Shown here one piece after another: positions 12,995 through 31,923 of a stretch of DNA of 64,000 nt. A model generated the notes under the pieces. It had not been told where the DNA came from. It did no database searches and saw nothing but the letters and a program-made list of their open reading frames with translations. How positions within the stretch are numbered: the first letter of the stretch is position 1; each line of letters opens with the position of its first letter. The position numbers were made by a program, and so were the translations under genes. The stretch is from an uncultured Clostridia bacterium (lineage in GTDB: Bacteria > Bacillota > Clostridia > Saccharofermentanales > DTU023): assembly GCA_946220865.1 (NCBI GenBank), contig CAMJYM010000007.1, positions 1,959 to 65,958 of the forward strand, read 5' to 3'.

Positions 12995-14443
12995 TTACGC
13001 CTTGAGATCGAGTTCCTTCGCGGCTTTAACCTCGTCGGGGCGACGCACCGGTGTATTGTGCGGGGCTTCAAGCAGCTTTTCAGGATTTTCCTTCGCTTCT
13101 TTGGCCACATTGATAAAGGCTTCGACCAGCTGATCCAGACCTTCACGGGTTTCCGTATCGGTCGGCTCGACCATCATGGCCTCATGCACAATGAGCGGGA
13201 AATACACGGTCGGGGGATGAACCCCGTTCTCGATGAGTCCCTTGGCCATATCCAGCGTGCTCACGCCGTATTCATCTTTCTGGCGTGTGCCCGAGATGAT
13301 GAACTCATGCATGGGCTTGCCTTCCGGATGATCGAAGTAGTCCTTCACTTTGGTGAAAATGTAGTTGGCATTGGCCACGGCTGCTTCGGAGGCATCATAC
13401 AGACCCTCAGCTCCCATGGCCAGGATGTAAGCGCAGCTGCGGAGCAGCACGGCCGTTGAGCCGTTGTAACTTCTCATGCGGCCGATCGATTTGGGTCGAT
13501 CGTTATCCCAGCTGTAGACGCCGTCTTTTTCTTGGAGCACAGGCTTGGGCAGATAGCAGGCCAGAAAATCTTTGCAGCCCACCGGACCGGCACCCGGTCC
13601 GCCGCCACCGTGCGGGGTGGAGAAGGTTTTGTGCACGTTGAGGTGGACACAGTCAAAGCCCATGTCCCCGGGACGAACGTGCAGGAGAATTGCATTCAAG
13701 TTGGCTCCGTCGTAGTACATCAGGCCACCGGCTTCGTGCACCAGATCGCAGATTTCCTTGATGTCTGTCTCAAAACGCCCCATGGTATTGGGGTTTGTCA
13801 ACATCATACCGGCGACATCATCACCGAGTTTCGACTTGAGATCCTCCATGTCGACCGTGCCCGCCTCCGTAGATTTCACCTCACGGACGACGAAGCCAGC
13901 CATCGCTGCAGAAGCAGGGTTAGTCCCATGAGCTGAGTCAGGCACGAGCATGACCTGGCGCTTATCGTCGTGACGATCACGGTGGTAGGCAGCAATCAGC
14001 ATGACGCCAGTCAGTTCGCCATGAGCGCCCGCCGCGGGCTGGAAGGTAAAGGCATCCATGCCGGTAATGTCGCAGAGCAGCTGTTCATGCAGATGGAGCA
14101 TTTTCAGCGTTCCCTGAACGGTCTCGTCAGGCTGCAGAGGGTGCAGGCGGGAAAAAGCCGGGTTCGCCACAATATCCTCATTAACTTTGGGATTGTACTT
14201 CATCGTGCAGGACCCCAGAGGATAGGGCCCGTTTTCGACGCCAAAGTTTTTCGTGGAGAGATTCGTGTAATGGCGCACCACCTGGATTTCCGAGAGGTTG
14301 GGGAAATTCAGATCTTCTTCCCTGAGCAGAGCTTTGTCATACCAGCCTTCGATATTGGAGCTCAGTCGCTCGTGATCGAAATACGTGCGGTTTCCTCCGG
14401 TCTGGGGAAGGTCAAAGATCAAATTGGTTTTATAGCTGATCAT
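12995..14443 (-). CDS. gcvPB: glycine dehydrogenase (aminomethyl-transferring) subunit 2
   Basis: 482 aa with the PLP-lysine region HLNVHKTFSTPHGGGGPG. Overlaps the gcvPA stop by 1 nt. Confidence 0.95.
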   Translation of the reverse strand: MISYKTNLIFDLPQTGGNRTYFDHERLSSNIEGWYDKALLREEDLNFPNLSEIQVVRHYTNLSTKNFGVENGPYPLGSCTMKYNPKVNEDIVANPAFSRLHPLQPDETVQGTLKMLHLHEQLLCDITGMDAFTFQPAAGAHGELTGVMLIAAYHRDRHDDKRQVMLVPDSAHGTNPASAAMAGFVVREVKSTEAGTVDMEDLKSKLGDDVAGMMLTNPNTMGRFETDIKEICDLVHEAGGLMYYDGANLNAILLHVRPGDMGFDCVHLNVHKTFSTPHGGGGPGAGPVGCKDFLACYLPKPVLQEKDGVYSWDNDRPKSIGRMRSYNGSTAVLLRSCAYILAMGAEGLYDASEAAVANANYIFTKVKDYFDHPEGKPMHEFIISGTRQKDEYGVSTLDMAKGLIENGVHPPTVYFPLIVHEAMMVEPTDTETREGLDQLVEAFINVAKEAKENPEKLLEAPHNTPVRRPDEVKAAKELDLKA

Positions 14444-15792
14444 TATTTTTCCTCCTTCCCGGCCAGTTCTTTCACCGAGGCCACGAAGCGGTCGAGATGA
14501 GCCTTGTCTTTCTTTTCCGTGGCCGCGAGGAGCCAGACATTGTTTTCCAGGACCACCCCGCCAAGGATCTTTTTGTCGAGGAGTTTCTTGTTGAGCGCTC
14601 TGAGATCCAGGCCATTTTTCGCTTTCAACGCAAATTCACGGAAATAAGGCGCATCATAGACCTCTTCAAAGAGGCCGGTCTTCAGCAATTCATCGTGCAG
14701 ATAACGGGCCTTGTCCGCCGACTGCCAGGCCGCTTCAGTCAAACCCTGACGGCCGAGCAGCGCCATGTGGATGGCGGCAGCTGTCGCCAGCAAAGCCTGC
14801 GCGGTGCAGATGTTGGAAGTCGCCTTCTCGCGGCGGATATGCTGTTCACGCGCCTGCAGGGTAAGGACGTAGGAGGTCTCGCCATCACGGTCAACAGTAC
14901 GGCCGCAGATGCGTCCGGGCATTTTGCGCACCAGTTTATCCGTGCAGCACATGTAGCCGAGGGCCGGTCCGCCGTAATTCAGAGAGGCTCCGAGCGGCTG
15001 GGCTTCACCAAAGACCACATCAAGTCCGGCTTTTCCGGGCGTCTTGAAAATGGCCATGACCACAGGATCCATCGCTGCGCAGGCCAGGGCGTCTACATCA
15101 TGAGCCGCCTTGCTGAGCTCGTCCAGATTCTCGACGACGCCATAAAAGTTGGGGCTCTGGATAATAAAAGCCGCGTAGCCACTTTCCTTCGGATAGCAGC
15201 CTGCAGAACTGCCATGCTCATTCAGCTCGCCGATTTCATATTCGAAACCATGCGAAATGAAATACGTTTTCACACACTCAATATATTCGGGATTCAGGCC
15301 AGCTGAGAGCCACACCTTGTTGGTCTTGCGCTTATCACGAATGGCCATGAGAGCCGTTTCCGCACAGGCGGAAGCGCCATCGTACATGGAAGCGTTGGCA
15401 ACATCCATACCACTCAGACGGCAGATGAAGCTCTGCCACTCGAAGGTAGCCTGCAGGGTACCCTGCGAAATTTCCTGCTGGTACGGGGTGTAGGAAGTCA
15501 GGAACTCTTCGCGGTTAATGAGGTGGTGCACCGCTGCGGGCACGACATGATCGTAAAAGCCTGCACCGAGGTAGGAATCATAGTCGTCCAGATTTTTATT
15601 CTGGCGCGCTGCTTCATCAAAAAGTTTCAGCAGGGCCTGCTCGGATAAACCTTTTTCCGCAAGATGATCCAGCTTCCGACGTTTCAGACGGAGTTCCTCC
15701 GGGATATGGCTGAAGAGTGAGGCAGGATCGATGCCCACTTCCCGGAGCATCGCGTGTCGCTCTTCAGCGGCAATGGGGACGTAATTGCTCAT
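14443..15792 (-). CDS. gcvPA: glycine dehydrogenase (aminomethyl-transferring) subunit 1
   Basis: 449 aa with typical GcvPA sequence (TSYTPYQQEISQGTLQ). Confidence 0.95.
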   Translation of the reverse strand: MSNYVPIAAEERHAMLREVGIDPASLFSHIPEELRLKRRKLDHLAEKGLSEQALLKLFDEAARQNKNLDDYDSYLGAGFYDHVVPAAVHHLINREEFLTSYTPYQQEISQGTLQATFEWQSFICRLSGMDVANASMYDGASACAETALMAIRDKRKTNKVWLSAGLNPEYIECVKTYFISHGFEYEIGELNEHGSSAGCYPKESGYAAFIIQSPNFYGVVENLDELSKAAHDVDALACAAMDPVVMAIFKTPGKAGLDVVFGEAQPLGASLNYGGPALGYMCCTDKLVRKMPGRICGRTVDRDGETSYVLTLQAREQHIRREKATSNICTAQALLATAAAIHMALLGRQGLTEAAWQSADKARYLHDELLKTGLFEEVYDAPYFREFALKAKNGLDLRALNKKLLDKKILGGVVLENNVWLLAATEKKDKAHLDRFVASVKELAGKEEK

Positions 15793-16187
15793 TATTGGGC
15801 CTCTTCACAAAGTTTCCGATAATCATCGGGTTTCAGCAGCTCATCAAGTTCAGACGGATCCGAAAGTTTCACTTTGGCAATCCAGGTATCGTAGGGTGCG
15901 CTGTTCAGCTGATCCGGTGCATCTTCAATGCTCTCGTTGGCTTCCACGATTTCGCCGGAAACAGGGGTGTAGACATCCTCAGCCATTTTCACAGATTCTA
16001 CGCTGGCGATGACGTCACCCTTGCTGAGTTCACTGCCGACAGGTTCGGCTTCAGCATAAACAAGATCGCCCAGTTCTTTCTGAGCATAATCAGAGATGCC
16101 GACGGAAGCGATATCACCCTCAACCAGAACCCACTCATGGGTTTTGGTGTAAACACGATCATTTCTCACATCAATTTCAACAGACAT
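15792..16187 (-). CDS. gcvH: glycine cleavage system protein H
   Basis: 131 aa with the lipoyl-lysine motif VESVKMAEDV. Confidence 0.95.
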   Translation of the reverse strand: MSVEIDVRNDRVYTKTHEWVLVEGDIASVGISDYAQKELGDLVYAEAEPVGSELSKGDVIASVESVKMAEDVYTPVSGEIVEANESIEDAPDQLNSAPYDTWIAKVKLSDPSELDELLKPDDYRKLCEEAQ

Positions 16188-16276
16188 TTTCTTTTCCTTT
16201 CCTGGCCCCCCGGGCCTTCCGGTCTCCCGGTACTGCGGCTTTCTGCCACTTTCCCTCTGCCCTTGGCTTCGGGGAC

Positions 16277-17395
16277 TTAACGATCTCTTTTAACAAAGGG
16301 CGCCGTGGTTTTTCTGAAGGGCTGCTCTTTGCGATGAACTTCTACCATAAATTCTTCCACCTCATCGGGGAAAGCCGGATCTACAAGAGCGTAGGCAATG
16401 CCTTTGCCGAGGGTTGGCGAGAAAGTGCCGGAGCTGATATGCCCGACTTCTTTGCCATCTGCAAACACAGGGTAGCCTTCGCGGGGAATGGCCCTTCCCT
16501 CACTGATCAGAGGGATAAGCTTATGGTGCTGGACGAGCTTACCTGCTGCAATAAAGGGACGATCCGTCTTGACGGCGAAACCGACGCCGGCATCAAGCGG
16601 ATTCAGCTCCTGACTCATTTCATGTCCATAGAGGGGCATGCCAGCTTCCAGACGCAGCGTATCTCTCGCGCCGAGACCCGCAGGTTCTGCGCCGAGCTTT
16701 ATCAGGGCATCCCAGAAACGACCCGCTTCCGCCGCAGGGAGATAGATTTCAAAGCCATCTTCACCCGTGTAACCGGTGCGGGAAATGACCATGGAAAGGT
16801 CACCTTTAAACTTGGGCTTGCGCTGCATGCGATAGCTTTTCATGCCGAGAACTATCTCGATAAATTCCGGTGCTTCCCCGAATTGCTCCAAAAGAGCTTT
16901 CATGATTTCCGGGCTCTTCGGGCCCTGAACGGCAATCTGAGCATAAAACTCAGACTCATCGGTAATCTTCACGTCCTGCACGGCCTCGGGATGCTTTTCA
17001 TAGAAGACGGGCAGAATATCATTCAAATAAGCAAAATCTTTATCTTTATTCGCCGCATTCACGACCAGCCAGTAGTCTCCGGATTCCTGGAAACGATAGG
17101 CCAGCAAATCGTCCACGGCGCCGCCGGCTTCATAGAGCAAAATAGCATAGCTGACCAATTCAGTTTTTTTACCGCTGATGTCACGGCTGAGGACCCAGTT
17201 GAGGAAGGCATCTGCGGAAGTCCCCGTTACACGGATTTCGCCCATGTGGGAAACATCAAAAATACCAACCTTTTCCCTCACGGCCAGAACTTCTTCTTTA
17301 ATGCCGGCGTATTGAATAGGCATATCAAAGCCTGCATATTCGCCCATTTTTGCATTGAGCGCAAGATGCTTATCATGCAAGGGTGTTTTTTTCAT
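16277..17395 (-). CDS. gcvT: glycine cleavage system aminomethyltransferase T
   Basis: 372 aa. MKKTPLHDKHLALNAKMGEYAGFDMP and the rest are typical GcvT. Confidence 0.95.
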   Translation of the reverse strand: MKKTPLHDKHLALNAKMGEYAGFDMPIQYAGIKEEVLAVREKVGIFDVSHMGEIRVTGTSADAFLNWVLSRDISGKKTELVSYAILLYEAGGAVDDLLAYRFQESGDYWLVVNAANKDKDFAYLNDILPVFYEKHPEAVQDVKITDESEFYAQIAVQGPKSPEIMKALLEQFGEAPEFIEIVLGMKSYRMQRKPKFKGDLSMVISRTGYTGEDGFEIYLPAAEAGRFWDALIKLGAEPAGLGARDTLRLEAGMPLYGHEMSQELNPLDAGVGFAVKTDRPFIAAGKLVQHHKLIPLISEGRAIPREGYPVFADGKEVGHISSGTFSPTLGKGIAYALVDPAFPDEVEEFMVEVHRKEQPFRKTTAPFVKRDR

Positions 17396-20942: not shown

Positions 20943-21554
20943 CTAGTTGGCCACTACCACGACACTGTGACGAATCACCTGGTCCCCGCAGCGATAACCT
21001 TTTTGCAGAACCTGGGCTACCATATTTTCACCCAGCTCTTTGTCTTCTATATGTTGAACGGCATTGTGCAGCTCCGGATCGAAGCTCTCTCCTGCCGCAG
21101 GGATTTCACTGACGCCGATTTTTTCCATGGACTCGATCGCCACTTTGCGAACCAGAGCCATACCTTCGGCCATTTTTTTGCTTTCTTCAGTGCTGGCCTT
21201 TTCTCCGCTCTCCACAGCCCGATCCAAATTATCCAGAACCGGCAGTAAGGCCTTGACGGCATCTGCTCTGGCATCTTCGTAGCAGCGGGACTTTTCCTGA
21301 CGTGTGCGTCGGCGGAAATTTTCGTATTCTGCAGCCAGCCGCAGATAGCGATCCTGAGCCTCTGCCAGCTCTTTTTCTTTATCTTCAAGTTCGGCCACTG
21401 CCTTTTCGTAGCGACCGGCCTTTTCATGTTCCTCATCCTGCTTAAAATCTTTCTGCTCGTCCGTTCTCAGATCTTTATCTTCGACCGGAGCAGCACCATT
21501 CGACTTGGACTGTCCGTTGCTGCGCCTGAGCGTTTTTTTGTGTTCATGACTCAT
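20943..21554 (-). CDS. grpE: nucleotide exchange factor GrpE
   Basis: 203 aa with a coiled-coil N-terminal half and a GrpE C-terminal beta domain. Overlaps the hrcA stop. Confidence 0.9.
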   Translation of the reverse strand: MSHEHKKTLRRSNGQSKSNGAAPVEDKDLRTDEQKDFKQDEEHEKAGRYEKAVAELEDKEKELAEAQDRYLRLAAEYENFRRRTRQEKSRCYEDARADAVKALLPVLDNLDRAVESGEKASTEESKKMAEGMALVRKVAIESMEKIGVSEIPAAGESFDPELHNAVQHIEDKELGENMVAQVLQKGYRCGDQVIRHSVVVVAN

Positions 21555-22728: not shown

Positions 22729-22755
22729 TTAGCACTCGATGTTCTCGAGTGCCAA
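22729..22755. promoter_or_regulatory. CIRCE operator (HrcA binding site)
   Basis: TTAGCACTC-GATGTTCTC-GAGTGCCAA compared with the consensus TTAGCACTC-N9-GAGTGCTAA (one mismatch). Confidence 0.9.
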
Positions 22756-22759
22756 GTTC

Positions 22760-22788
22760 ACTTTATCATTCACTCTGTTGACTGTCAA
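22760..22788 (-). promoter_or_regulatory. sigma-70-type promoter of the hrcA-grpE-dnaK-dnaJ operon
   Basis: Minus strand has TTGACA (22788-22783), a 17-nt spacer, then TAAAGT (22765-22760). CIRCE starts a few nt downstream. Confidence 0.6.
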
Positions 22789-22964: not shown

Positions 22965-24128
22965 TTAGACAAACTCCAGCATCACCTGGTTGGCCAAATC
23001 GAGGCCCAACTCCGAAAGGGCCAGCCCTTCAGGCGTTTTTTGCAGGAGGCCGCGCTCCTGAAGCCGGGAAAACGCACCTGCAAAGCGCAGCTGCGGCTCC
23101 TCGCCGAAGCGTTCATGATAGGCCTTAAAAGAGAGGCCTTCCGTCAGGCGAAAACGCAGCATGACATATTCTGCCTGCTCGGAGGCTCTGTCGATTTTTT
23201 CGTCTTCGATGGCAGCGGCATGTGCCTGAGTTTCCCCGGCGGCCAGCACTTTTTGCTCCCAGAGTTCAAAATCTTCTGGGTTATGTCGGCGAACGCTCGC
23301 TGTATAAGAGGCCGCGGCAGGTCCGAAGGCATAGTAAGGCAGGGCATTCCAATAGACGAGATTGTGTCGTGAGGCAAAACCCGGACGGGCGGCATTGGAG
23401 ATTTCGTAGGGAAAAAGCCCGCTTTGGCTCAGGCGGCGGCGCAGGCTGTGATACATGGCGCGTTCTTCGTCTTCGCCAGGCAGTTCAGAGGAATCGCGGG
23501 CCATTTCTGCGGCCAGGGGGGTACCTTCTTCAAGCTGCAGGGAATAGAAACTCAGGTGCTCGAGCTGAAACTGCAGCAGCCATTCGACTTCTTCGGCGAA
23601 GGATTCCAGGCTCTGACCGGGCAGAGCGAAGATCAGGTCCGAAGAAATGTTGTCGAAGCCGGCTTCACGCGCCGCACGAAGGGACTCAGCGAAGTCTTCA
23701 CGGGTATGAATGCGGCCCAATCGCTGTAAAAGGCGATTGTCTGCGGATTGCAGGCCGAGGCTGAGACGGTTAAAACCCATCTGTCGCAGGGCGGGGAGTC
23801 TGACGGGAAGGTTTTTGGCGGGATTGGCTTCCAGAGTGATTTCCGCTTCCGCGTCAAAAGAGAAACTGCGGCGCAGCGTGTCCATGATTTCTTCGAGGGC
23901 AGAGAGCGGCAGAAAACTTGGCGTACCCCCGCCAAAATAGCAGCTCTTCAGGGGAGCTGTCGTGCCATTTTGTTGCACAGTAGCTGCTGCTTCGGCGCGA
24001 ATTTCCAGGCAGACGGCCTGGGTGTAACGCTGGAAGGCCTCTGCCCTGGGCCGCAGGCTGTAAAAATCGCAGTAACTGCAGCGGGAAGCGCAGAAAGGCA
24101 CATGGATATAAGCGGCCGTCGGAATCAT
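22965..24128 (-). CDS. hemW: radical SAM heme chaperone HemW (HemN-like)
   Basis: CASRCSYCDF radical-SAM cluster motif and a HemN C-terminal domain. It occupies the usual position upstream of hrcA. Confidence 0.9.
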   Translation of the reverse strand: MIPTAAYIHVPFCASRCSYCDFYSLRPRAEAFQRYTQAVCLEIRAEAAATVQQNGTTAPLKSCYFGGGTPSFLPLSALEEIMDTLRRSFSFDAEAEITLEANPAKNLPVRLPALRQMGFNRLSLGLQSADNRLLQRLGRIHTREDFAESLRAAREAGFDNISSDLIFALPGQSLESFAEEVEWLLQFQLEHLSFYSLQLEEGTPLAAEMARDSSELPGEDEERAMYHSLRRRLSQSGLFPYEISNAARPGFASRHNLVYWNALPYYAFGPAAASYTASVRRHNPEDFELWEQKVLAAGETQAHAAAIEDEKIDRASEQAEYVMLRFRLTEGLSFKAYHERFGEEPQLRFAGAFSRLQERGLLQKTPEGLALSELGLDLANQVMLEFV

Positions 24129-24952
24129 ACTTCGTCCTGCTTCGAAGTCTGTTTTGCAGCGCGTCCTGACCTGTCGTTCTCGGCGGCAAGGCGAACGATA
24201 CTGCGAAAACGATCCAGAAAGTTCTTAAGACTGGGCGATTGATTGCGCTCAGGATCAAGCCAGGGAGCGATGGATTCTGCCCATTTGGCTTTGAATATGC
24301 CCACGGCAGGATAGCCGAGATGGGCAAGTTCCCGCCCTTTCTCCCGACCTTCAATAATTTGTGCTAAAAGCTCCCAGGTCCCGCAGACGCTGTCCTGAGA
24401 GTAGGTTTTCAAGAGGCTTGTATCCGCTTCTGGAAAGGCCTGACGAATGGCAAGAGGATCGCCCAGCAGCCAGGCCTCCATCTCTTCGACGGATATGCCG
24501 ATCACAAAGAAATTCTCCGGTGCACAGTGACGAATAAGCGCCTCGATCTTCTGGTAGAGACGATCTTTATCATCATCGTCTGAATCCAGAACCACGCAGA
24601 CGATCAGCGCTTCGTCCCGATCGAGATGCGAATAAGCTCTGAGCTTTGCCGGGAGAAGATTGAGCAGGCCGCTGCGGCTATACTCCGGTTTTTCAAAAAG
24701 GTTCGCAGGAATATAACCCTTGCCGCGATGGGGATGAATGTCGAGAACAATCCCATTGCAGGAAAGCTGATGCTCGCTCTTTTCCGGGACACCCGGCCAT
24801 AAAGCGAAGCCCTTCGCTCCGGCAGTTGATTCTGCTCCAGCTCGGACGGCTGCGGGAAAAAGAGCTTCGTGGCCGAAGAAAAGAATATCCCCCAGTATTT
24901 TTTTCAGAACCCTGACTGAAGACTTATCTTCACAAAGAACTTCTATGCGCAT
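24125..24952 (-). CDS. DUF4276-family (Toprim-like) protein, partner of the upstream ATPase
   Basis: Start set at ATG 24952 (MRIEVLCEDKSS). The track ORF extends to a TTG at 25081 inside the ATPase gene. The protein has an acidic first strand IEVLCED, VVLDSDDDD, and EEMEAWLLGD containing the EAW motif I recall as the DUF4276 hallmark. The junction to the ATPase gene is TGAGATG, and the stop overlaps the hemW start as ATGA. Confidence 0.6.
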   Translation of the reverse strand: MRIEVLCEDKSSVRVLKKILGDILFFGHEALFPAAVRAGAESTAGAKGFALWPGVPEKSEHQLSCNGIVLDIHPHRGKGYIPANLFEKPEYSRSGLLNLLPAKLRAYSHLDRDEALIVCVVLDSDDDDKDRLYQKIEALIRHCAPENFFVIGISVEEMEAWLLGDPLAIRQAFPEADTSLLKTYSQDSVCGTWELLAQIIEGREKGRELAHLGYPAVGIFKAKWAESIAPWLDPERNQSPSLKNFLDRFRSIVRLAAENDRSGRAAKQTSKQDEV

Positions 24953-24953
24953 C

Positions 24954-26192
24954 TCAGTTGACACCCAGATGGCCGCCGTACCAAAGCATCCCCATGTTGA
25001 TGCCTTCTTTATACATCTGACGGACAATCTCATCCTGCGCCAGGGAGCGCACTTGAATCTGTCCATCGCTCTTGCGCTCAAAGGCCCAGACCTCTTCCGG
25101 ACTCAAAGCCTCGAGCACCGAACTGTTGTGAGTGGTGAGAAAAATCTGCGCCCCCTTTTGCTCCAGAACATAGTGGCGCATGGCCTGCATCAGAGCTTCA
25201 ACCATATCGTGATAAAGGCCGTTATCAGGCTCGTCGATACAGATCAGAGCACGCGGATCTTCGAGCAAAAGCAACATGGCAAAAAGTCTCAGATTCCCTG
25301 AGGAAATACCCTGATCCAGAAACGCATCACCGACTTTCTTGTAGTCAGGAACCTGGTCCAGAATACGCGAGAGCAACTTTTCGTAGGCTTTAGGATCTTC
25401 CTTCTCCCGATAATTCAAGACATTACGCAAATTATCCATGCGCTCGTTGAGATGTTTATGCCCGCCCTTTTCTTTCGCTAAAAGGCCATTATCTGGCATC
25501 TCCGCCGGGTGGCAGACAAAGCTGCTCGTAAGCTGCAGATAAAGCCAGCAGAGATCCTTGTACTGGAGCATGCGTCCATAGAGCGAGAGGGCTGGAACCT
25601 TTTCGTCCAAAAGCTGTACTTCGTCATCGCCAAAGCGTTCTGAACTCACATGGCCTTTTCCCTCACAGACAGAAAGGAGTTCTTTTTCTCCCTCAGAGCT
25701 GAGCTGGCGCACCGTTTCTTCATAAATAAAGGGGCGGCTGTGTTTATCTCTGTTCATGCTGATATGGTAGTGAAGATACTGCTCCGGACGTCGTTCATAA
25801 ATGAAGTCAAAGACCATATCTTTTTTCTCAGAAGGCCCTTCGACTGCAGTTCTGCTATCTTCCGGAAATGCGCGCGGGATTCGGCTTTCCAAACTCCAGC
25901 TTTCCCCCTCCTGAAATGGCAGCTGGCGCGTGTGAAGGCGGGCAAAACCTCCGCGCTGGCCGCTGCTGGAGGCATGGGGGAGACCAAAGAGCAAGGCATC
26001 GCGGATAAAACTGATGCTGCCAAGGAAAGCGCTTTTACCCGTCCCATTTCGGCCGATAAAACAACTGAGGGCGCTTAGACCTCCTGTCATTTTTTCTTTT
26101 CTCTGTAAAGCCGCCTGAATTTCTTCGGACGTTGGTCCGATCGTCACATCTTTGAGAATACCGAACTGCTCAATATGAATCGAACGAAGCAT
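24954..26192 (-). CDS. ABC/SMC-like AAA ATPase (AAA_15/AAA_21 type)
   Basis: Walker A GRNGTGKS, signature-like SSGNLRLF, Walker B LICIDEPDNGLY and H-loop TTHN. About 270 aa are inserted between Walker A and the signature, as in OLD/AriA/PtuA-type ATPases. Confidence 0.75.
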   Translation of the reverse strand: MLRSIHIEQFGILKDVTIGPTSEEIQAALQRKEKMTGGLSALSCFIGRNGTGKSAFLGSISFIRDALLFGLPHASSSGQRGGFARLHTRQLPFQEGESWSLESRIPRAFPEDSRTAVEGPSEKKDMVFDFIYERRPEQYLHYHISMNRDKHSRPFIYEETVRQLSSEGEKELLSVCEGKGHVSSERFGDDEVQLLDEKVPALSLYGRMLQYKDLCWLYLQLTSSFVCHPAEMPDNGLLAKEKGGHKHLNERMDNLRNVLNYREKEDPKAYEKLLSRILDQVPDYKKVGDAFLDQGISSGNLRLFAMLLLLEDPRALICIDEPDNGLYHDMVEALMQAMRHYVLEQKGAQIFLTTHNSSVLEALSPEEVWAFERKSDGQIQVRSLAQDEIVRQMYKEGINMGMLWYGGHLGVN

Positions 26193-26203
26193 AGTTTTCC
26201 TCT

Positions 26204-26233
26204 CAGCAAAAGGGCTGCGACATGGCGCAGCCC
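26204..26233 (-). terminator. rho-independent terminator after the SPFH gene
   Basis: Perfect 8-bp stem GGGCTGCG / CGCAGCCC (26212-26219 and 26226-26233) followed on the minus strand by TTTTGCTG. It sits 12-40 nt upstream of the ATPase start. Confidence 0.6.
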
Positions 26234-26239
26234 TGGAAT

Positions 26240-27325
26240 TTAAATCTTGGAGAAAGCAGAAGGCTCAAAGTGATGCCCTGACAGGGGGTCGTCAGCCGAC
26301 TGCGTGAGTTTGCGCTCTTCTTCTTCGGGTCTCCATTTTTCTTCTATGGGGGACACCGCCTCCGTTTTTTCTGCGACCTGATCGGGAGAAAAATGAGGAT
26401 CTGTAATCATTTCCTTAATAGAGACGGCAGCTGAAGCAATGCCTTGCATGTTTGAAGGAATAATAATCTTGGTCGCACGGCCGTCAGCAACCTTGGTCAG
26501 GGCTTCAAGCCCTTTCAGGGCGATAAGGCTCTTATCCGCACGTACGTCCTTAACCATGGCGAGACCCTTGGCCGTAGCTTCCTGCACCTTGAGGATGGCC
26601 TGAGCCTGACCTTCGGCCACTCGAATGGCCTGTTCCTTTTTGGCTTCGGCGCGCAGAATAGCCGCCTCTTTTTCACCTTCAGCCACACGGATGGCTGCTT
26701 CCTTCTGCCCCTCAGCGCGCAGAATATTTTCGCGTTTTTCACGCTCCGCTTTCATCTGCCGCTCCATGGCGGTCTGAATTTCTTTCGGCGGAATGATGTT
26801 TTTCAGTTCGACTCGATTGACTTTAATGCCCCAGGGATCTGTGGCAATATCCAGGGTTTCCCGCATTCTCGTGTTGATGACATCGCGGGAAGTCAGCGTT
26901 TCGTCGAGTTCAAGGTCGCCGATGATGTTACGCAGGGTTGTTGCCGAAAGATTTTCGATAGCCGAAATAGGATTCTCAATGCCGTAGGTGTAGAGCTTAG
27001 GATCGACAATCTGGTAAAACACTACGGTGTCGATCTGCATGGTGACATTATCCTTGGTGATCACAGCCTGCGGCTCAAAATCCGCCACTTTTTCTTTCAG
27101 CGAGATGTTTTTGATCACTTTATCAATAAACGGCACCTTCATATGGAGGCCGGTGTCCCAGGTGGCTTTGTAGGTTCCCAGCCGCTCAATGATGAAATTG
27201 TGGGCCTGAGGCACAACACGAATATTGCGGATGAGGATAATCAGAAGCACGAGGGCGAGAAAAATAAGGGCGATAAGAGAACCGATGCGATTCTCAGGAA
27301 AACCGTTTTGAATGCTAAGAAACAT
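26240..27325 (-). CDS. SPFH/Band 7 (stomatin/flotillin-like) membrane protein
   Basis: N-terminal TM followed by a PHB/SPFH core (VPQAHNFIIERLGTYKATWDTGLH) and an Ala/Glu-rich repeat region AEREKRENILRAEGQKEAAIRVAEG. Confidence 0.9.
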   Translation of the reverse strand: MFLSIQNGFPENRIGSLIALIFLALVLLIILIRNIRVVPQAHNFIIERLGTYKATWDTGLHMKVPFIDKVIKNISLKEKVADFEPQAVITKDNVTMQIDTVVFYQIVDPKLYTYGIENPISAIENLSATTLRNIIGDLELDETLTSRDVINTRMRETLDIATDPWGIKVNRVELKNIIPPKEIQTAMERQMKAEREKRENILRAEGQKEAAIRVAEGEKEAAILRAEAKKEQAIRVAEGQAQAILKVQEATAKGLAMVKDVRADKSLIALKGLEALTKVADGRATKIIIPSNMQGIASAAVSIKEMITDPHFSPDQVAEKTEAVSPIEEKWRPEEEERKLTQSADDPLSGHHFEPSAFSKI

Positions 27326-27476
27326 AATGATTCCTTTCTATAAAGCAGCGGCGGCCTGGCGCTTTTGCTTTCGTGTAAGGACACGTCTTAAATATTGTGC
27401 CAGAACAGAACAATTTTTGCTTAAAAATTTCGTCAGTTCGATGTTAATTCTTTGTCAAAAACCAAGGCTCACGGAT

Positions 27477-27929
27477 TTAAGAAGCTGGCGCAGGGTCTGT
27501 GGGTCGAACCACTGCTTTAACACCATGGATGGCCAACACTCTGACCGTTGCGCCTTCCGGAATGCTGCTCTGCCCATCCTCCGCAATGGCCGACCATATC
27601 TGTCCCAGAACTTCGATCTGCCCGGCCTTTTTGAGTGGCAGTATTTCTTTGATGACGCGGCCCTCTTCTCCGATAATGCGATCGGCATTAGTGGATACCG
27701 GGCGTTTGCTCAAGGGGGCCATTCGCGGTTTGAAAACGAGGATAAACAGCAGCAGACAGACGACCGAGACAAGGAAAAAGATCAGCAACTGCAACCAGAG
27801 TTCCACGTCCAGGAAATTGGCTATCAGAGAGGCCAGCGCGCCAGCCGCAAACCAGATGGTTGTCATGTTGACGGTCGCTGCTTCAGCAATCAGAAAAAGT
27901 ATGATAAGGACCAACCAGATTATCCACAT
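27477..27929 (-). CDS. NfeD-family membrane protein (short form)
   Basis: Start at ATG 27929 (MWIIWLVLIILF), sharing one base with the upstream stop (TAATG). Two to three TM helices precede an OB-fold-like C-terminus (GEEGRVIKEILPLKKAGQIEVLGQIWSA). Confidence 0.8.
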   Translation of the reverse strand: MWIIWLVLIILFLIAEAATVNMTTIWFAAGALASLIANFLDVELWLQLLIFFLVSVVCLLLFILVFKPRMAPLSKRPVSTNADRIIGEEGRVIKEILPLKKAGQIEVLGQIWSAIAEDGQSSIPEGATVRVLAIHGVKAVVRPTDPAPAS

Positions 27930-29326
27930 TATGAAAGCTCCTTTGCTCCTTTGGCCACGGTTCCCGGCGGAACATTGCGGCAAAGCTGATCGAGAATAAA
28001 AGTGAGATTATTGATGCGAATTTCCAGGCGATCCGCCTCGCTCAGATAATCGTCCTGGCTGCTCTCCGCTGCCAAACTCTGACGCTCTTCGCTGAGCGGA
28101 CTTGTTTCTTCTGAACGACCGAAGCGGTCGCGATTCTTCTGCTGCTTTTCAGAGACGAAATAGTTGAGAAGGCGGTCGCTGCTGTCAAAACCGCTGCCGG
28201 CAATCATACCATTCACAGAGGCAAAAAAGGGATCATTGCTCTCTTTAACCGGGCTGTCACATTGCTCAATATCATAGTCGCCAGAGTCAAAAAAGACGAT
28301 GGGTATCCCCAGCTGATCGAAGGGACTGTAATCACTTTTCTTTTCTGTCCACTCGCGGTAAATGCACTTTCCCACGCCTGCCAATTCCTTTTCGCAGCCC
28401 GCCTGATTGGTATAGAGGGCAAAGCCGTTGCGGGTCAGCAGCAGGTTATCGTAGTAGACATCGGTACACTCGTAGAGTTTGCGGCGCAAAGCGTATTTTT
28501 TCTTTTCTCCGCTCTCTACAGAATTTTGACCTGCATGAGCATACACCTTGTCCCCTGCATAAATGGAATCTAAAACGACAAGCGCATCAATTTTTTCACG
28601 CTCAGCAGGACTCAGCTGATCGGCTGCAAACTTTGCCCCAGCAAAATCAGCATGTCCCGCGCCAAAAAAGACGATGGTCACATCGTAGGCGGCCGGCTTC
28701 ACCGCCAGAAGCCGGGCGGTCTGCAAAAGGACGCCGAGGGCTGCAGCGTTATCGTCGATGCCATCACTTTGAGCCAATTTAGGCAGGTTAGGATCACTGG
28801 CCACAGGATTTCCCTCTTCATCGACCTCCGCCGTCTGAGCTTCCTGATCTTTTTCTTCCGCCTGCGCACGGCTGTAAAGGGTGTCATAGTGTGCGCCGAG
28901 AATAAGTCGCCGCCCTTCCAGATCAGCAGGATGCTGCATTTCGGCGCTTTGAGCCATAAGCTCGTCATTCTGCGACTCTACAGGCTTAAAACCTTTTCCT
29001 TTAATCGTAGCCAGAACATTCTGTGAGCTTTTCCCGCCCACTTGAAAGCTCTGCATCTCGACCTGCAGACCCAGGTGTTCAAGTTCCGCTTTAAGCCACT
29101 CGGCCAGAGCCTTTTCTTCAGGGGACCCAGGGGCGCGGAAAGGAAAGTTCTGTACGATGTCCAGACTGCTCTTGCGTCCTCCGCCACCATAACGGGCCAC
29201 CGTAAGTGGAGCTCTTTCGCCCCTCTGAAGGACAGAGCAGGAAGATAGAGCAAAACTCTGGGTAAGCAGGCAAAAGCCAAGCAGCAGAAGGCTGAAAAAT
29301 CTTTTCGGGCACGACGTGGTTTTCAT
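27929..29326 (-). CDS. M28-family peptidase-like lipoprotein
   Basis: Signal peptide and lipobox (ALSSC), then LILGAHYDT and GIDDNAAALGVLLQTARLL as in M28 aminopeptidases. The usual EE catalytic/ligand pair appears replaced (FFGAGHADFAGA). Confidence 0.65.
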   Translation of the reverse strand: MKTTSCPKRFFSLLLLGFCLLTQSFALSSCSVLQRGERAPLTVARYGGGGRKSSLDIVQNFPFRAPGSPEEKALAEWLKAELEHLGLQVEMQSFQVGGKSSQNVLATIKGKGFKPVESQNDELMAQSAEMQHPADLEGRRLILGAHYDTLYSRAQAEEKDQEAQTAEVDEEGNPVASDPNLPKLAQSDGIDDNAAALGVLLQTARLLAVKPAAYDVTIVFFGAGHADFAGAKFAADQLSPAEREKIDALVVLDSIYAGDKVYAHAGQNSVESGEKKKYALRRKLYECTDVYYDNLLLTRNGFALYTNQAGCEKELAGVGKCIYREWTEKKSDYSPFDQLGIPIVFFDSGDYDIEQCDSPVKESNDPFFASVNGMIAGSGFDSSDRLLNYFVSEKQQKNRDRFGRSEETSPLSEERQSLAAESSQDDYLSEADRLEIRINNLTFILDQLCRNVPPGTVAKGAKELS

Positions 29327-30486: not shown

Positions 30487-31923
30487 ATGGGTGAATTTAT
30501 TCCTGCCAAGACGAGCGTCAGGTGGTCTTCAGCAGCTGCGCTCACAGACATCGCAGGCGCAGGCAGAGCAGGTATAGGCCCATGTATCACAGGCACAGGC
30601 GCAGTGAGCAGCAGTTCAGACACCGCCGGCGCAGATGCAGCGAATAGAGGCTCAGACAAGCTCCGTTGCAAGGCCCCTCGCCTGGGCATCCTGCACTGTG
30701 ATATGAATGCCTACTATGCTTCTGTCGAGCAAGTCCTGAACCCAGCCCTTAAAGGTCTGCCCATGGCCGTTTGCGGCTCGGTAGAGGACCGTCACGGAAT
30801 TGTGCTGGCCAAGTCACAGGAAGCTAAAATCCAGGGGGTCAAAACCGGCGAGACTATCTGGCAGGCGCAGAGCAAATGTCCCCAGCTCCACATCGTGCCT
30901 CCTCACTATGAAGCTTATGTGCATTATTCCAAACGGGCACGGGCCATTTACGCTGAGGTCAGCAATCAGGTCGAGCCCTTTGGCCTCGATGAATGCTGGC
31001 TGGATGTACGGGGAAGCCGCCAGCTCTTTGGCTCTCCCGAAGAGATCGCCGAGCTGCTGCGGCAGCGTATCAAGCGGGAACTGGGTCTGACTATTTCCGT
31101 GGGCGTCAGTATCAACAAGGTCTTTGCCAAACTCGGCAGCGACATGAAAAAACCTGATGCGGTCACCGTCCTGCTCAGCGAAGACATTCCCGACAAAGTC
31201 TGGAACTTGCCGGTCGAAGATCTTCTGGGCGTCGGCCCCGCAACCAAACGAAAGCTCAATCTCTGGGGCATCAGTACCATCGGTCAGCTCGCCCACGCCC
31301 CGGCAGAACTTCTGCAGCGCCGCCTCGGCATCAACGGCTATCGGCTCTGGCGCTGGGCTAACGGCTGGGATGACGGGCGCGTGCGTGTGCTGGGCGAGAG
31401 CGGACCCGTCAGGAGTATCGGGCACAGTCTTACCCTGCGTCACGATCTCGTCAGTAAAGAAAGCCTCTGGCCGGTTTTCCTGGCCCTTGCCCAGAATGTT
31501 GGTCTGCGTCTACGGAGCGGCGGTTTTCGTGCAGGTGGTGTGCAAATCAGCCTGCGCGACCAGAACTTCTTTCAGGAAGAATTTCAGACGCCGCTGCCCT
31601 ACCCCAGCCACAGCAGCGTGTATCTTGCACGCTGCGCCTATAAACTCTTCACCTGCATGAGTGAGATGCCGGTCCCCCTCAGAGCCGTGGGCATCCGTGC
31701 CATCCAGCTCATTCCCCTGGAACAGCCGCTGCAGCTGAACTTTTTTTCGGATGCCCGGGAGCTGGAGCGCCTGGAGAAAATTGAGGACTGTATTTACAAC
31801 CTGCGCGGGCGCTTTGGCGAAAAGAGCGTAAGCTGGGCTGTGCTTCAGCGCGACCTTGACTTTGCCGAACAAACCCCCGACGAAATCCATCCTCCGGGTC
31901 TGCCGGTCTTCGGGCCGAACTAA
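30487..31923 (+). CDS. dinB: DNA polymerase IV (Y-family) with an N-terminal low-complexity extension
   Basis: ILHCDMNAYYASVEQ and SVGVSINKVFAKLGSDMKKPD are Y-family motifs. The only RBS-backed start (GAGGAGG, ATG 30487) adds about 70 Gly/Ala/Ser-rich residues upstream of the catalytic core. Confidence 0.85.
   Translation: MGEFIPAKTSVRWSSAAALTDIAGAGRAGIGPCITGTGAVSSSSDTAGADAANRGSDKLRCKAPRLGILHCDMNAYYASVEQVLNPALKGLPMAVCGSVEDRHGIVLAKSQEAKIQGVKTGETIWQAQSKCPQLHIVPPHYEAYVHYSKRARAIYAEVSNQVEPFGLDECWLDVRGSRQLFGSPEEIAELLRQRIKRELGLTISVGVSINKVFAKLGSDMKKPDAVTVLLSEDIPDKVWNLPVEDLLGVGPATKRKLNLWGISTIGQLAHAPAELLQRRLGINGYRLWRWANGWDDGRVRVLGESGPVRSIGHSLTLRHDLVSKESLWPVFLALAQNVGLRLRSGGFRAGGVQISLRDQNFFQEEFQTPLPYPSHSSVYLARCAYKLFTCMSEMPVPLRAVGIRAIQLIPLEQPLQLNFFSDARELERLEKIEDCIYNLRGRFGEKSVSWAVLQRDLDFAEQTPDEIHPPGLPVFGPN

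Follow-up and report, generated by a model that had tools for sequence, protein, structure and literature searches.

The window analysed here is the whole of a 64,000-nucleotide stretch of DNA from an uncultured Clostridia bacterium (GTDB lineage Bacteria; Bacillota; Clostridia; Saccharofermentanales; DTU023), taken from contig CAMJYM010000007.1 of GenBank assembly GCA_946220865.1 (positions 1,959 to 65,958 of the forward strand). Immediately upstream of hemW, its minus strand carries two genes that encode an ABC-type ATPase (gene 1) and a DUF4276 protein (gene 2). This protein class has already been catalogued as HEC-01, and the new part is the hemW context: an immune-type module has been fixed, anciently and across a whole clade, in a three-gene hemW operon, with decay of catalytic residues in the ATPase. 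The operon consists of the following features.

26192 to 24954, minus strand: gene 1, ABC-type ATPase resembling HEC-01A, 412 amino acids (open reading frame and translation)
24952 to 24125, minus strand: gene 2, DUF4276 protein resembling HEC-01B, 275 amino acids, start ATG at 24952
22965 to 24128, minus strand: hemW, of the radical-SAM heme chaperone type from the CxxxCxxC and HNxxYW motifs in its translation
24950 to 24956, minus strand: TGAGATG junction, with the gene 1 stop TGA at 24956-24954, a G at 24953 and the gene 2 ATG at 24952-24950
24125 to 24128, minus strand: ATGA overlap, with the gene 2 stop TGA (24127-24125) on the hemW start ATG (24128-24126), a translational coupling

The original prediction for this locus had given the lengths of both genes, the start of gene 2, their motifs, the TGAGATG junction and the ATGA overlap, and all of these were confirmed in the sequence. 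Orthologues of the third gene carry the Radical_SAM and HemN_C domains, and its homologues are named HemW in their sources.

An OLD-like ATPase and its DUF4276 partner

The window copy of gene 1 shows every motif and the fold expected of an ABC ATPase, and its placement among the OLD/Septu/Gabija-type ABC ATPases is well supported. The protein contains GRNGTGKS, SSGNLRLF, LICIDEPDNGLY and TTHN, with the Walker A at residues 47-54, the signature SSGN at 297-300, the Walker B IDEP at 319-322 and the H-loop TTHN at 353-356. The long insert that had been noted between Walker A and the signature is real; it spans approximately residues 60-295 and has a beta-rich part and a helical part in the AlphaFold model (pLDDT, the predicted local distance difference test, 85). 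Pfam matches were to AAA_21 (5.5e-24) and AAA_15 (2.3e-12), and the PADLOC HEC-01A model PDLC04182 matched at E = 3.4e-67 (225 bits). In a Foldseek search of the PDB, the top matches of the gene 1 model were the Thermus OLD structure 6p74 (3e-9), the retron Eco8 OLD protein, GajA and PtuA. The fold also matches the heads of SMC and RecN, and the OLD, GajA, PtuA and SMC matches have E values from 3e-9 to 1e-6. Orthologues of gene 1 were drawn from the fetched loci, and the homologue search for gene 1 gave 14 proteins.

Gene 2 is, with reasonable support, a putative metal-dependent nuclease of the Toprim type. All of its homologues begin at the MxIEVL position, so ATG 24952 is the true start, and a longer TTG-started open reading frame (25081) was ruled out by the same homologue starts. 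The protein matches Pfam DUF4276 (PF14103) at 1.6e-7, with 32.2 bits where the gathering score is 30.2; the family was matched by all 52 aligned homologues, the best at E = 2.1e-12. The PADLOC HEC-01B model PDLC04205 matched at E = 4.3e-58 (194 bits). The original prediction had placed the pair in an OLD-like class of ATPase with a DUF4276 partner, and the profile check that it proposed agrees: the family assignment was right on the AAA_21, DUF4276 and Foldseek matches, gene 2 passes the gathering score, and PADLOC labels the two proteins HEC-01A and HEC-01B.

Gene 2 contains the motifs IEVLCED, DSDDDD and EEMEAWLLGD. Its predicted structure (pLDDT 86) follows the order b1-a1-b2-a2-b3-a3-b4 and continues into a helical C-terminal domain. 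In this model strand b1 (residues 2-7) leads into E8 and D9, strand b3 (116-123) ends in D123-x-D125, and strand b4 (148-154) is followed by E156, E157 and E159. The modelled layout of these acidic residues is that expected of a Toprim metal site, and all seven (E8, D9, D123, D125, E156, E157 and E159) are invariant in 79 of 79 orthologues. Across the 52 homologues, 28 of the 275 positions of the window protein are invariant, and the helical C-terminal domain holds the invariant motifs QDSVCGTWE, GYPAVG and RNxSPS. The OLD-type Toprim model was not matched by gene 2, and PHROGs has no family for it. RloB was the sole other Toprim-like family to match gene 2 and its homologues weakly, at non-significant E values of 0.04-0.22.

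Each protein also carries an insertion specific to its genus.

25824 to 25928, minus strand: insertion in gene 1, residues 89-123, disordered in the model (pLDDT 34-38)
24755 to 24874, minus strand: insertion in gene 2, residues 27-66, low-confidence (pLDDT 43-60) and predicted to be disordered

The former was seen in the window protein and P0241 alone in the gene 1 alignment, and the latter in the window protein, P0001 and P0002 alone in the alignment of gene 2 homologues. These insertions probably account for much of the higher ratio of nonsynonymous to synonymous substitution (dN/dS) of gene 2.

Among the named systems, the closest is HEC-01, a Hma-embedded candidate that pairs an ABC ATPase with a TOPRIM protein (Payne et al., bioRxiv 10.1101/2024.01.29.577857). 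As in HEC-01, the window holds an adjacent, co-oriented ABC ATPase gene followed by a separate gene for a DUF4276/TOPRIM-like protein, with the acidic metal-site residues kept. HEC-01 is defined by its embedding in other defence systems and is patchy, whereas the window pair belongs to a hemW operon and has housekeeping neighbours, with SPFH, NfeD and M28 genes on one side and hemW-hrcA-grpE-dnaK on the other. The hemW-linked sister clade further differs in that most of its members are without the ATPase catalytic Glu. Against the best HEC-01A and HEC-01B models, an embedded relative scored 646 and 320 bits versus 225 and 194 bits for the window proteins.

The remaining systems are more distant. 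In MADS, Mad4 is a DUF4276 homologue described as a member of the Toprim superfamily, and Mad3 is a related ATPase (PMC12065111). The window ATPase partially matches mad3 models (PADLOC 1.9e-12; NCBIfam 4.9e-19), but with NCBIfam MAD3 it reaches 68.8 bits where the cut-off is 420, and neither a methyltransferase nor any other MADS gene lies near the window pair. PARIS likewise has a split ABC ATPase (AriA) and a Toprim-type nuclease (AriB), the ATPase scaffold sequestering the nuclease until it is triggered, and DUF4276 appears in the phylogeny of AAA_15/21 defence ATPases in the same paper (PMC11464382). Gene 1 has a partial AriA match (3.7e-23); AriB, however, is a DUF4435 protein, a family that gene 2 does not match in Pfam or PADLOC, and PARIS is typically phage- or satellite-borne and patchy whereas the window pair is chromosomal and fixed. 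The fold of gene 1 is closest to Thermus OLD 6p74 and GajA (OLD/Gabija classes 1-2), yet in OLD and GajA the ATPase and Toprim parts are fused and in the window they are two separate open reading frames, and no GajB-like helicase accompanies the pair. AbiL is another two-gene system, of an ATPase (AbiLi) and a Toprim-like RloB protein (AbiLii); AbiLi models match gene 1 (8.1e-22), but RloB matches to gene 2 are non-significant and AbiL is a plasmid-borne abortive infection system of lactococci.

Conservation and descent of the triad

The gene 2 alignment was scanned against one genome per GTDB species, which gave at least 584 stretches encoding a relative, and the best 80 were kept. Clade names among these 80 are Saccharofermentans, Mageeibacillus, Fastidiosipila and 'Oscillospiraceae/Clostridiales' metagenome-assembled genomes (MAGs), from rumen, gut and digesters. 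Every one of the 80 best species-level genomes has the ABC ATPase, DUF4276 and hemW genes in the same order on the same strand. Across 78 related loci, gene 1 and gene 2 are at most 20 nucleotides apart in 87%, and gene 2 runs 1, 4 or 8 nucleotides into hemW in 77%. Wherever a locus is long enough for an assessment, both genes have an intact reading frame. Two relatives that were picked through their HemW protein alone (46% and 51% identity) carry the full window arrangement, XRE-M78-M28-NfeD-Band_7-ABC-DUF4276-hemW-hrcA-grpE-dnaK-dnaJ. The coupling to hemW, which the original prediction had considered unusual, is present, but it is clade-wide and not peculiar to this genome.

The synteny check that had been suggested for the interval between the SPFH gene and hemW gave a constant triad and a variable Band_7 neighbour upstream. 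The gene directly upstream of the pair is Band_7 in 17 loci, M28 in 4 and some other gene in 49; a Saccharofermentans-type locus (L044), for example, has recG-rsmD-coaD and a DivIVA-like gene there. Downstream, hrcA follows hemW directly in 39 of the 68 informative loci, comes after unrelated inserted genes in seven (L013, L027, L028, L041, L048, L052 and L066; 1.3-5 kb extra) and does not occur within 2.5 kb in 22. Because both flanks vary, the conserved unit is the triad and not the dnaK locus, and in this clade hemW is much less firmly linked to hrcA, its classical neighbour, than to the pair. A role of the hemW-hrcA gap as an insertion hotspot for defence genes was ruled out, since the inserts are unrelated metabolic, transport and sigma-factor genes; the five that were checked hold an acyltransferase with an Ltp-like lipoprotein, a mannitol dehydrogenase/PfkB, a MatE protein, an MBL-rhodanese protein and an ECF sigma factor.

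The pair has been inherited vertically. The distance matrices of the two genes are correlated with the hrcA and dnaK matrices (Spearman rho 0.68-0.86; 0 of 300 permutations reach the observed values), at least as well as that of hemW itself. On average, pairs of sequences diverge by 0.60 in gene 1 and 0.48 in gene 2, compared with 0.58 in hemW, 0.43 in hrcA and 0.21 in dnaK. Purifying selection is evident in the comparison with the congeneric locus L007, where dN/dS is 0.078 for gene 1, 0.18 for gene 2, 0.096 for hemW and 0.135 for grpE. The GC content of the pair (0.48-0.54) is that of the surroundings, with no shift; there are no integrase or repeat boundaries at the pair and no tRNA genes in the window. 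Its fixed position, its co-divergence with hrcA and dnaK and its neighbour-like dN/dS thus show that the pair is not a defence-island insertion. The original prediction had read the pair as a conflict module, a reading to be abandoned should the pair prove universally conserved at this position under selection typical of housekeeping genes; with the same position in 80 of 80 genomes and housekeeping-like dN/dS, an anti-phage role can no longer lean on mobility or context.

Relatives outside the clade live in other settings. The hemW-linked set is monophyletic with respect to seven outgroup loci (neighbour-joining bootstraps of 24 of 25 for gene 2 and 25 of 25 for gene 1), which indicates a single origin, and the outgroup relatives share 37-43% identity, or 30% in the case of one viral contig. 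One of them (L089) is embedded in a BREX-like system, with BrxC/PglY, a methyltransferase, an SNF2 helicase and PglZ around it; two lie in unrelated Gram-negative contexts; and four relatives are on IMG/VR viral contigs, each with a paired ATPase. In a separate tblastn search, plasmids yielded a few relatives and a phage record yielded one. In the simplest history, a mobile HEC-01-type pair was captured a single time ahead of hemW and then descended vertically for a long period.

At least one lineage has since lost the pair from the hemW position. In L093, which is nested inside the pair-bearing clade with 100 of 100 bootstraps, a Peptidase_M28 gene overlaps hemW and the pair is absent from this position. 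The same M28-hemW arrangement without the pair occurs in L092, which could not be placed in the tree. The coupling of M28 to hemW in these two loci is a 4-nucleotide overlap or a 1-nucleotide gap, and hemW seems always to be expressed through coupling to whichever gene precedes it.

Within the hemW-linked clade the ATPase site has decayed. The catalytic Glu after the Walker B acid is present in 11 of 79 orthologues and lost in 68, where it is replaced by Thr (41), Asn (10), Ser (8) and also Ala or Gln, and the Ser-Gly of the signature is retained in approximately 13 of the 79. Walker A, Q349 and the H-loop His are retained across the hemW-linked ATPases. All seven outgroup ATPases are canonical (MSDGTLK signature, EEPENGLYH Walker B, TTHQ or TTHS H-loop). 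Gene 1 of the window is canonical as well (SSGN and IDEP; Walker B Glu site at 25227-25232), and the degenerate copies are among L009-L086. Since most orthologues are without the catalytic Glu, ATP binding appears to be the key step, and we infer that the fixed lineage needs ATP binding and not turnover. GajA is reportedly regulated by nucleotide binding without robust hydrolysis, and the degenerate site of the hemW-linked clade would fit a comparable, GajA-like nucleotide gating.

Possible roles of the pair ahead of hemW

We tentatively favour a core and fixed function of a surveillance or immune-like kind, in which the pair shares a transcript with hemW owing to its capture into the operon and not to any need for HemW. 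The pair would be a two-component machine of the HEC-01 type, OLD-like, consisting of the ABC ATPase and a separate DUF4276 (Toprim-like) metal-dependent nuclease. A single capture ahead of hemW would have taken place in the ancestor of a deep clostridial clade that comprises Saccharofermentans, Mageeibacillus, Fastidiosipila and many MAGs from rumen, gut and digesters, and the two genes would since have descended vertically as the first two of a packed ABC-DUF4276-hemW operon. PARIS, Gabija and Septu suggest by analogy how the machine might work: the ATPase, as a dimer with ATP bound, would hold or gate the nuclease, and a trigger would then free or activate it to cut nucleic acid. Candidate triggers are a foreign protein, a foreign nucleic acid or a drop in nucleotide levels. 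Our best guess for the role is a constitutive core surveillance of nucleic acid, immune-like and broad.

Several observations weigh against this proposal. The original prediction knew of no experimental characterisation for the class, but HEC-01 has been both catalogued and tested: in E. coli, challenged with BASEL and classic phages, its published representative gave no protection (bioRxiv 10.1101/2024.01.29.577857). On the side of the nuclease, Foldseek searches of the PDB and BFVD with the gene 2 model returned no significant match to any fold, and hhalign of gene 2 with the Toprim domain of P2 Old gave a probability below 1%, in a non-significant alignment that paired VLCEDKS of gene 2 with LLVEGKTE of P2 Old. 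The Toprim label therefore rests on the residues, the topology and the literature, since the fold and profile searches gave no significant match. The clade is also deep, with DnaK identity to the window of 72-86% within it versus 70% for the Anaerotignum outgroup. Retention at one locus over such a depth is unusual for immunity and fits a housekeeping function at least as well. Finally, the contrast between a triad kept in 80 of 80 genomes and hemW-hrcA adjacency in 39 of 68 loci could reflect a real functional tie to HemW.

The last two points lead to the next explanation, which is possible though rather unlikely: a domesticated housekeeping module, in which the pair lost its conflict role after capture and joined a HemW-linked pathway. 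That pathway could be one of nucleic-acid processing or repair, or the pair could act as a nucleotide- or stress-sensing nuclease. Consistent with domestication, the triad is never separated while both of its flanks vary, gene 2 commonly runs into the hemW start, substitution rates and dN/dS resemble those of the housekeeping neighbours, and the degeneration of the catalytic Glu and signature, confined to the hemW-linked clade, suggests a change of function. Elsewhere, hemW neighbourhoods hold rph, rdgB and an RNA helicase, from which a link of hemW to nucleic-acid pathways has been proposed (PMC13495026). On the other hand, hemW occurs without the pair in most bacteria, and also in the nested L093 and the unplaced L092, so HemW does not need the pair. 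In those two loci hemW is coupled just as tightly to M28, and coupling or an ATGA overlap is therefore by itself no sign of a functional tie. The family-wide invariant motifs, moreover, are common to the mobile relatives too, and the biochemistry is therefore probably unchanged. To our knowledge no pathway joins HemW to a nuclease, which also counts against domestication.

It is unlikely, for its part, that the ABC ATPase, the DUF4276 nuclease and HemW form one functional unit, a domesticated OLD-like module whose ATPase would have been reduced to an ATP-binding switch, given that 86% of lineages no longer have the catalytic Glu. Were it true, this would be the first housekeeping role for a two-gene system of the HEC-01/OLD type, and it would give a clue to the function of the radical-SAM protein HemW in heme-poor anaerobes.

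Less probable again is that the pair is a trapped or addictive passenger, kept for its position and of no benefit to the host. Transcription and translation of hemW would run through the pair, so that only a precise deletion is tolerated, and a toxin-antitoxin-like nuclease restrained by its ATPase might penalise loss. A promoter scan of gene 2 gave no promoter-like site, there is no promoter room between gene 1 and a hairpin upstream of it, and stop/start overlaps are widespread, all of which would suit a passenger. The one nested loss (L093) is a clean excision that restored an M28-hemW overlap, and PARIS provides a precedent for Toprim toxins restrained by an ATPase (PMC11464382). Decay would be expected of a useless spacer, however, yet one in ten or so of the gene 2 positions (28 of 275) stays invariant across its homologues. 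The key residues sampled are invariant or nearly so in the 79 orthologues, dN/dS lies at 0.08-0.18, and neither reading frame is broken in any locus long enough to judge.

The least credible of the explanations, which can be dismissed, is that a mobile anti-phage cassette was recently acquired and inserted by hemW in the manner of a defence island: gene 1 is homologous to HEC-01, OLD, PARIS and Septu-type ATPases, and the settings of distant relatives of the pair include a BREX-like system, viral contigs and plasmids, but synteny (the same position in 80 of 80 genomes, among conserved housekeeping neighbours) and co-phylogeny (co-divergence with hrcA and dnaK, single origin) rule it out, and the GC content matches the surroundings with no integrase, tRNA or repeat boundaries.

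Whether the pair serves in core surveillance, as we tentatively favour, or otherwise, its fixation has practical consequences. PADLOC-type tools will label it 'HEC-01' by homology alone throughout a large clade of rumen and gut clostridia, and such labels would enter a core operon of vertical descent among the accessory immune systems. The two subfamilies amount to a natural experiment, one being mobile (in BREX-like, viral and plasmid settings) and its sister long locked in a housekeeping operon. In the locked subfamily the residues for ATP hydrolysis have decayed and the nuclease site is invariant, a contrast that can be used to study how immune modules are fixed or domesticated. The fixed clade includes cultivable hosts (Saccharofermentans, Mageeibacillus and Fastidiosipila), which offer a route to the native function of HEC-01. 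The invariant linkage also supplies a hypothesis, open to testing, on what HemW does beyond respiration.

Transcription of the locus and neighbouring genes

The XRE, M78, M28, NfeD, Band_7, ABC, DUF4276 and hemW genes all point the same way and are separated by short gaps, and a good sigma-70-like site lies upstream of XRE at 30421-30392. Three further features bear on how the pair is transcribed and translated.

26212 to 26233, minus strand: hairpin GGGCTGCG-CCATGT-CGCAGCCC, with an 8-bp GC-rich stem and a 6-nucleotide loop, followed by TTTT
26198 to 26204, minus strand: Shine-Dalgarno-like GAGAGGA, 5 nucleotides before the gene 1 ATG and invariant in three close relatives (L001, L002 and L007)
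22729 to 22788, minus strand: boundary of the hrcA-grpE-dnaK-dnaJ unit, with a sigma-70-like promoter TTGACA-17-TAAAGT at 22788-22760 and a CIRCE operator at 22729-22755

The hairpin sits between the stop of the SPFH/Band_7 gene (26240) and the start of gene 1. It has a folding free energy of -17 to -19 kcal/mol but a z-score of only -1.75 in a 61-nucleotide context; it was not among the calls of the terminator scan. The same three relatives keep the stem and vary the loop. From the hairpin to the gene 1 ATG there are 19 nucleotides, which include the GAGAGGA ribosome-binding site and leave no space for a promoter, so gene 1 must be read through the hairpin. In a relative of 50% identity the gap from the Band_7 gene to the ATPase gene is 5 nucleotides. 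The original prediction had described the hairpin as a terminator that insulates the pair from the SPFH gene. The structure is there, but with 19 nucleotides to the ATG and a 5-nucleotide gap in the relative its insulating effect is doubtful, and a full insulator was ruled out because no promoter fits downstream of it. The hairpin probably acts as a partial terminator or as a 3' structure that stabilises the RNA.

The CIRCE operator, TTAGCACTC-N9-GAGTGCCAA, is near-perfect (1 mismatch) and lies directly downstream of the hrcA promoter. It is the sole match in the 64-kb window, where 0.01 would be expected by chance. Heat-shock control of the pair was ruled out, as this sole CIRCE site is upstream of hrcA. 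An intrinsic terminator was looked for after hemW, and no convincing structure was found there (z-score +1.14).

Upstream of the pair, the block of Peptidase_M28, NfeD and SPFH (Band_7) genes (window positions 26240-29326) is found directly upstream in approximately one quarter of the related loci. Beyond it, the window holds an XRE-family helix-turn-helix gene (30271-29897) and a gene for an ImmA/IrrE-type M78 metallopeptidase (29875-29330), which are divergent from a gene for a Y-family (IMS/DinB-like) DNA polymerase at 30487-31923. L001 and L002 keep this arrangement; of it, L099 and L100 have just the XRE-M78 pair. Its appearance is that of a damage-response switch built from a protease and a repressor, and not that of a prophage remnant. 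An origin in a mobile element within the window was ruled out by the conserved XRE/M78 synteny, together with the unshifted GC content and the lack of tRNA genes.

Downstream of the triad, dnaJ is followed on the same strand by the glycine-cleavage genes gcvT, gcvH and those for two GDC-P subunits (12995-17395). The order of dnaJ and the glycine-cleavage genes also occurs in L001, L002 and L004 and is a further case of conserved synteny. The grpE genes of the congeneric loci L002 and L007 encode proteins approximately 60 residues longer than that of the window (265 versus 203 amino acids; window 20943-21554). Identity of these two loci to the window is 66-72% for grpE versus 95-99% for hrcA and dnaK, which points to a fast-changing region in grpE.

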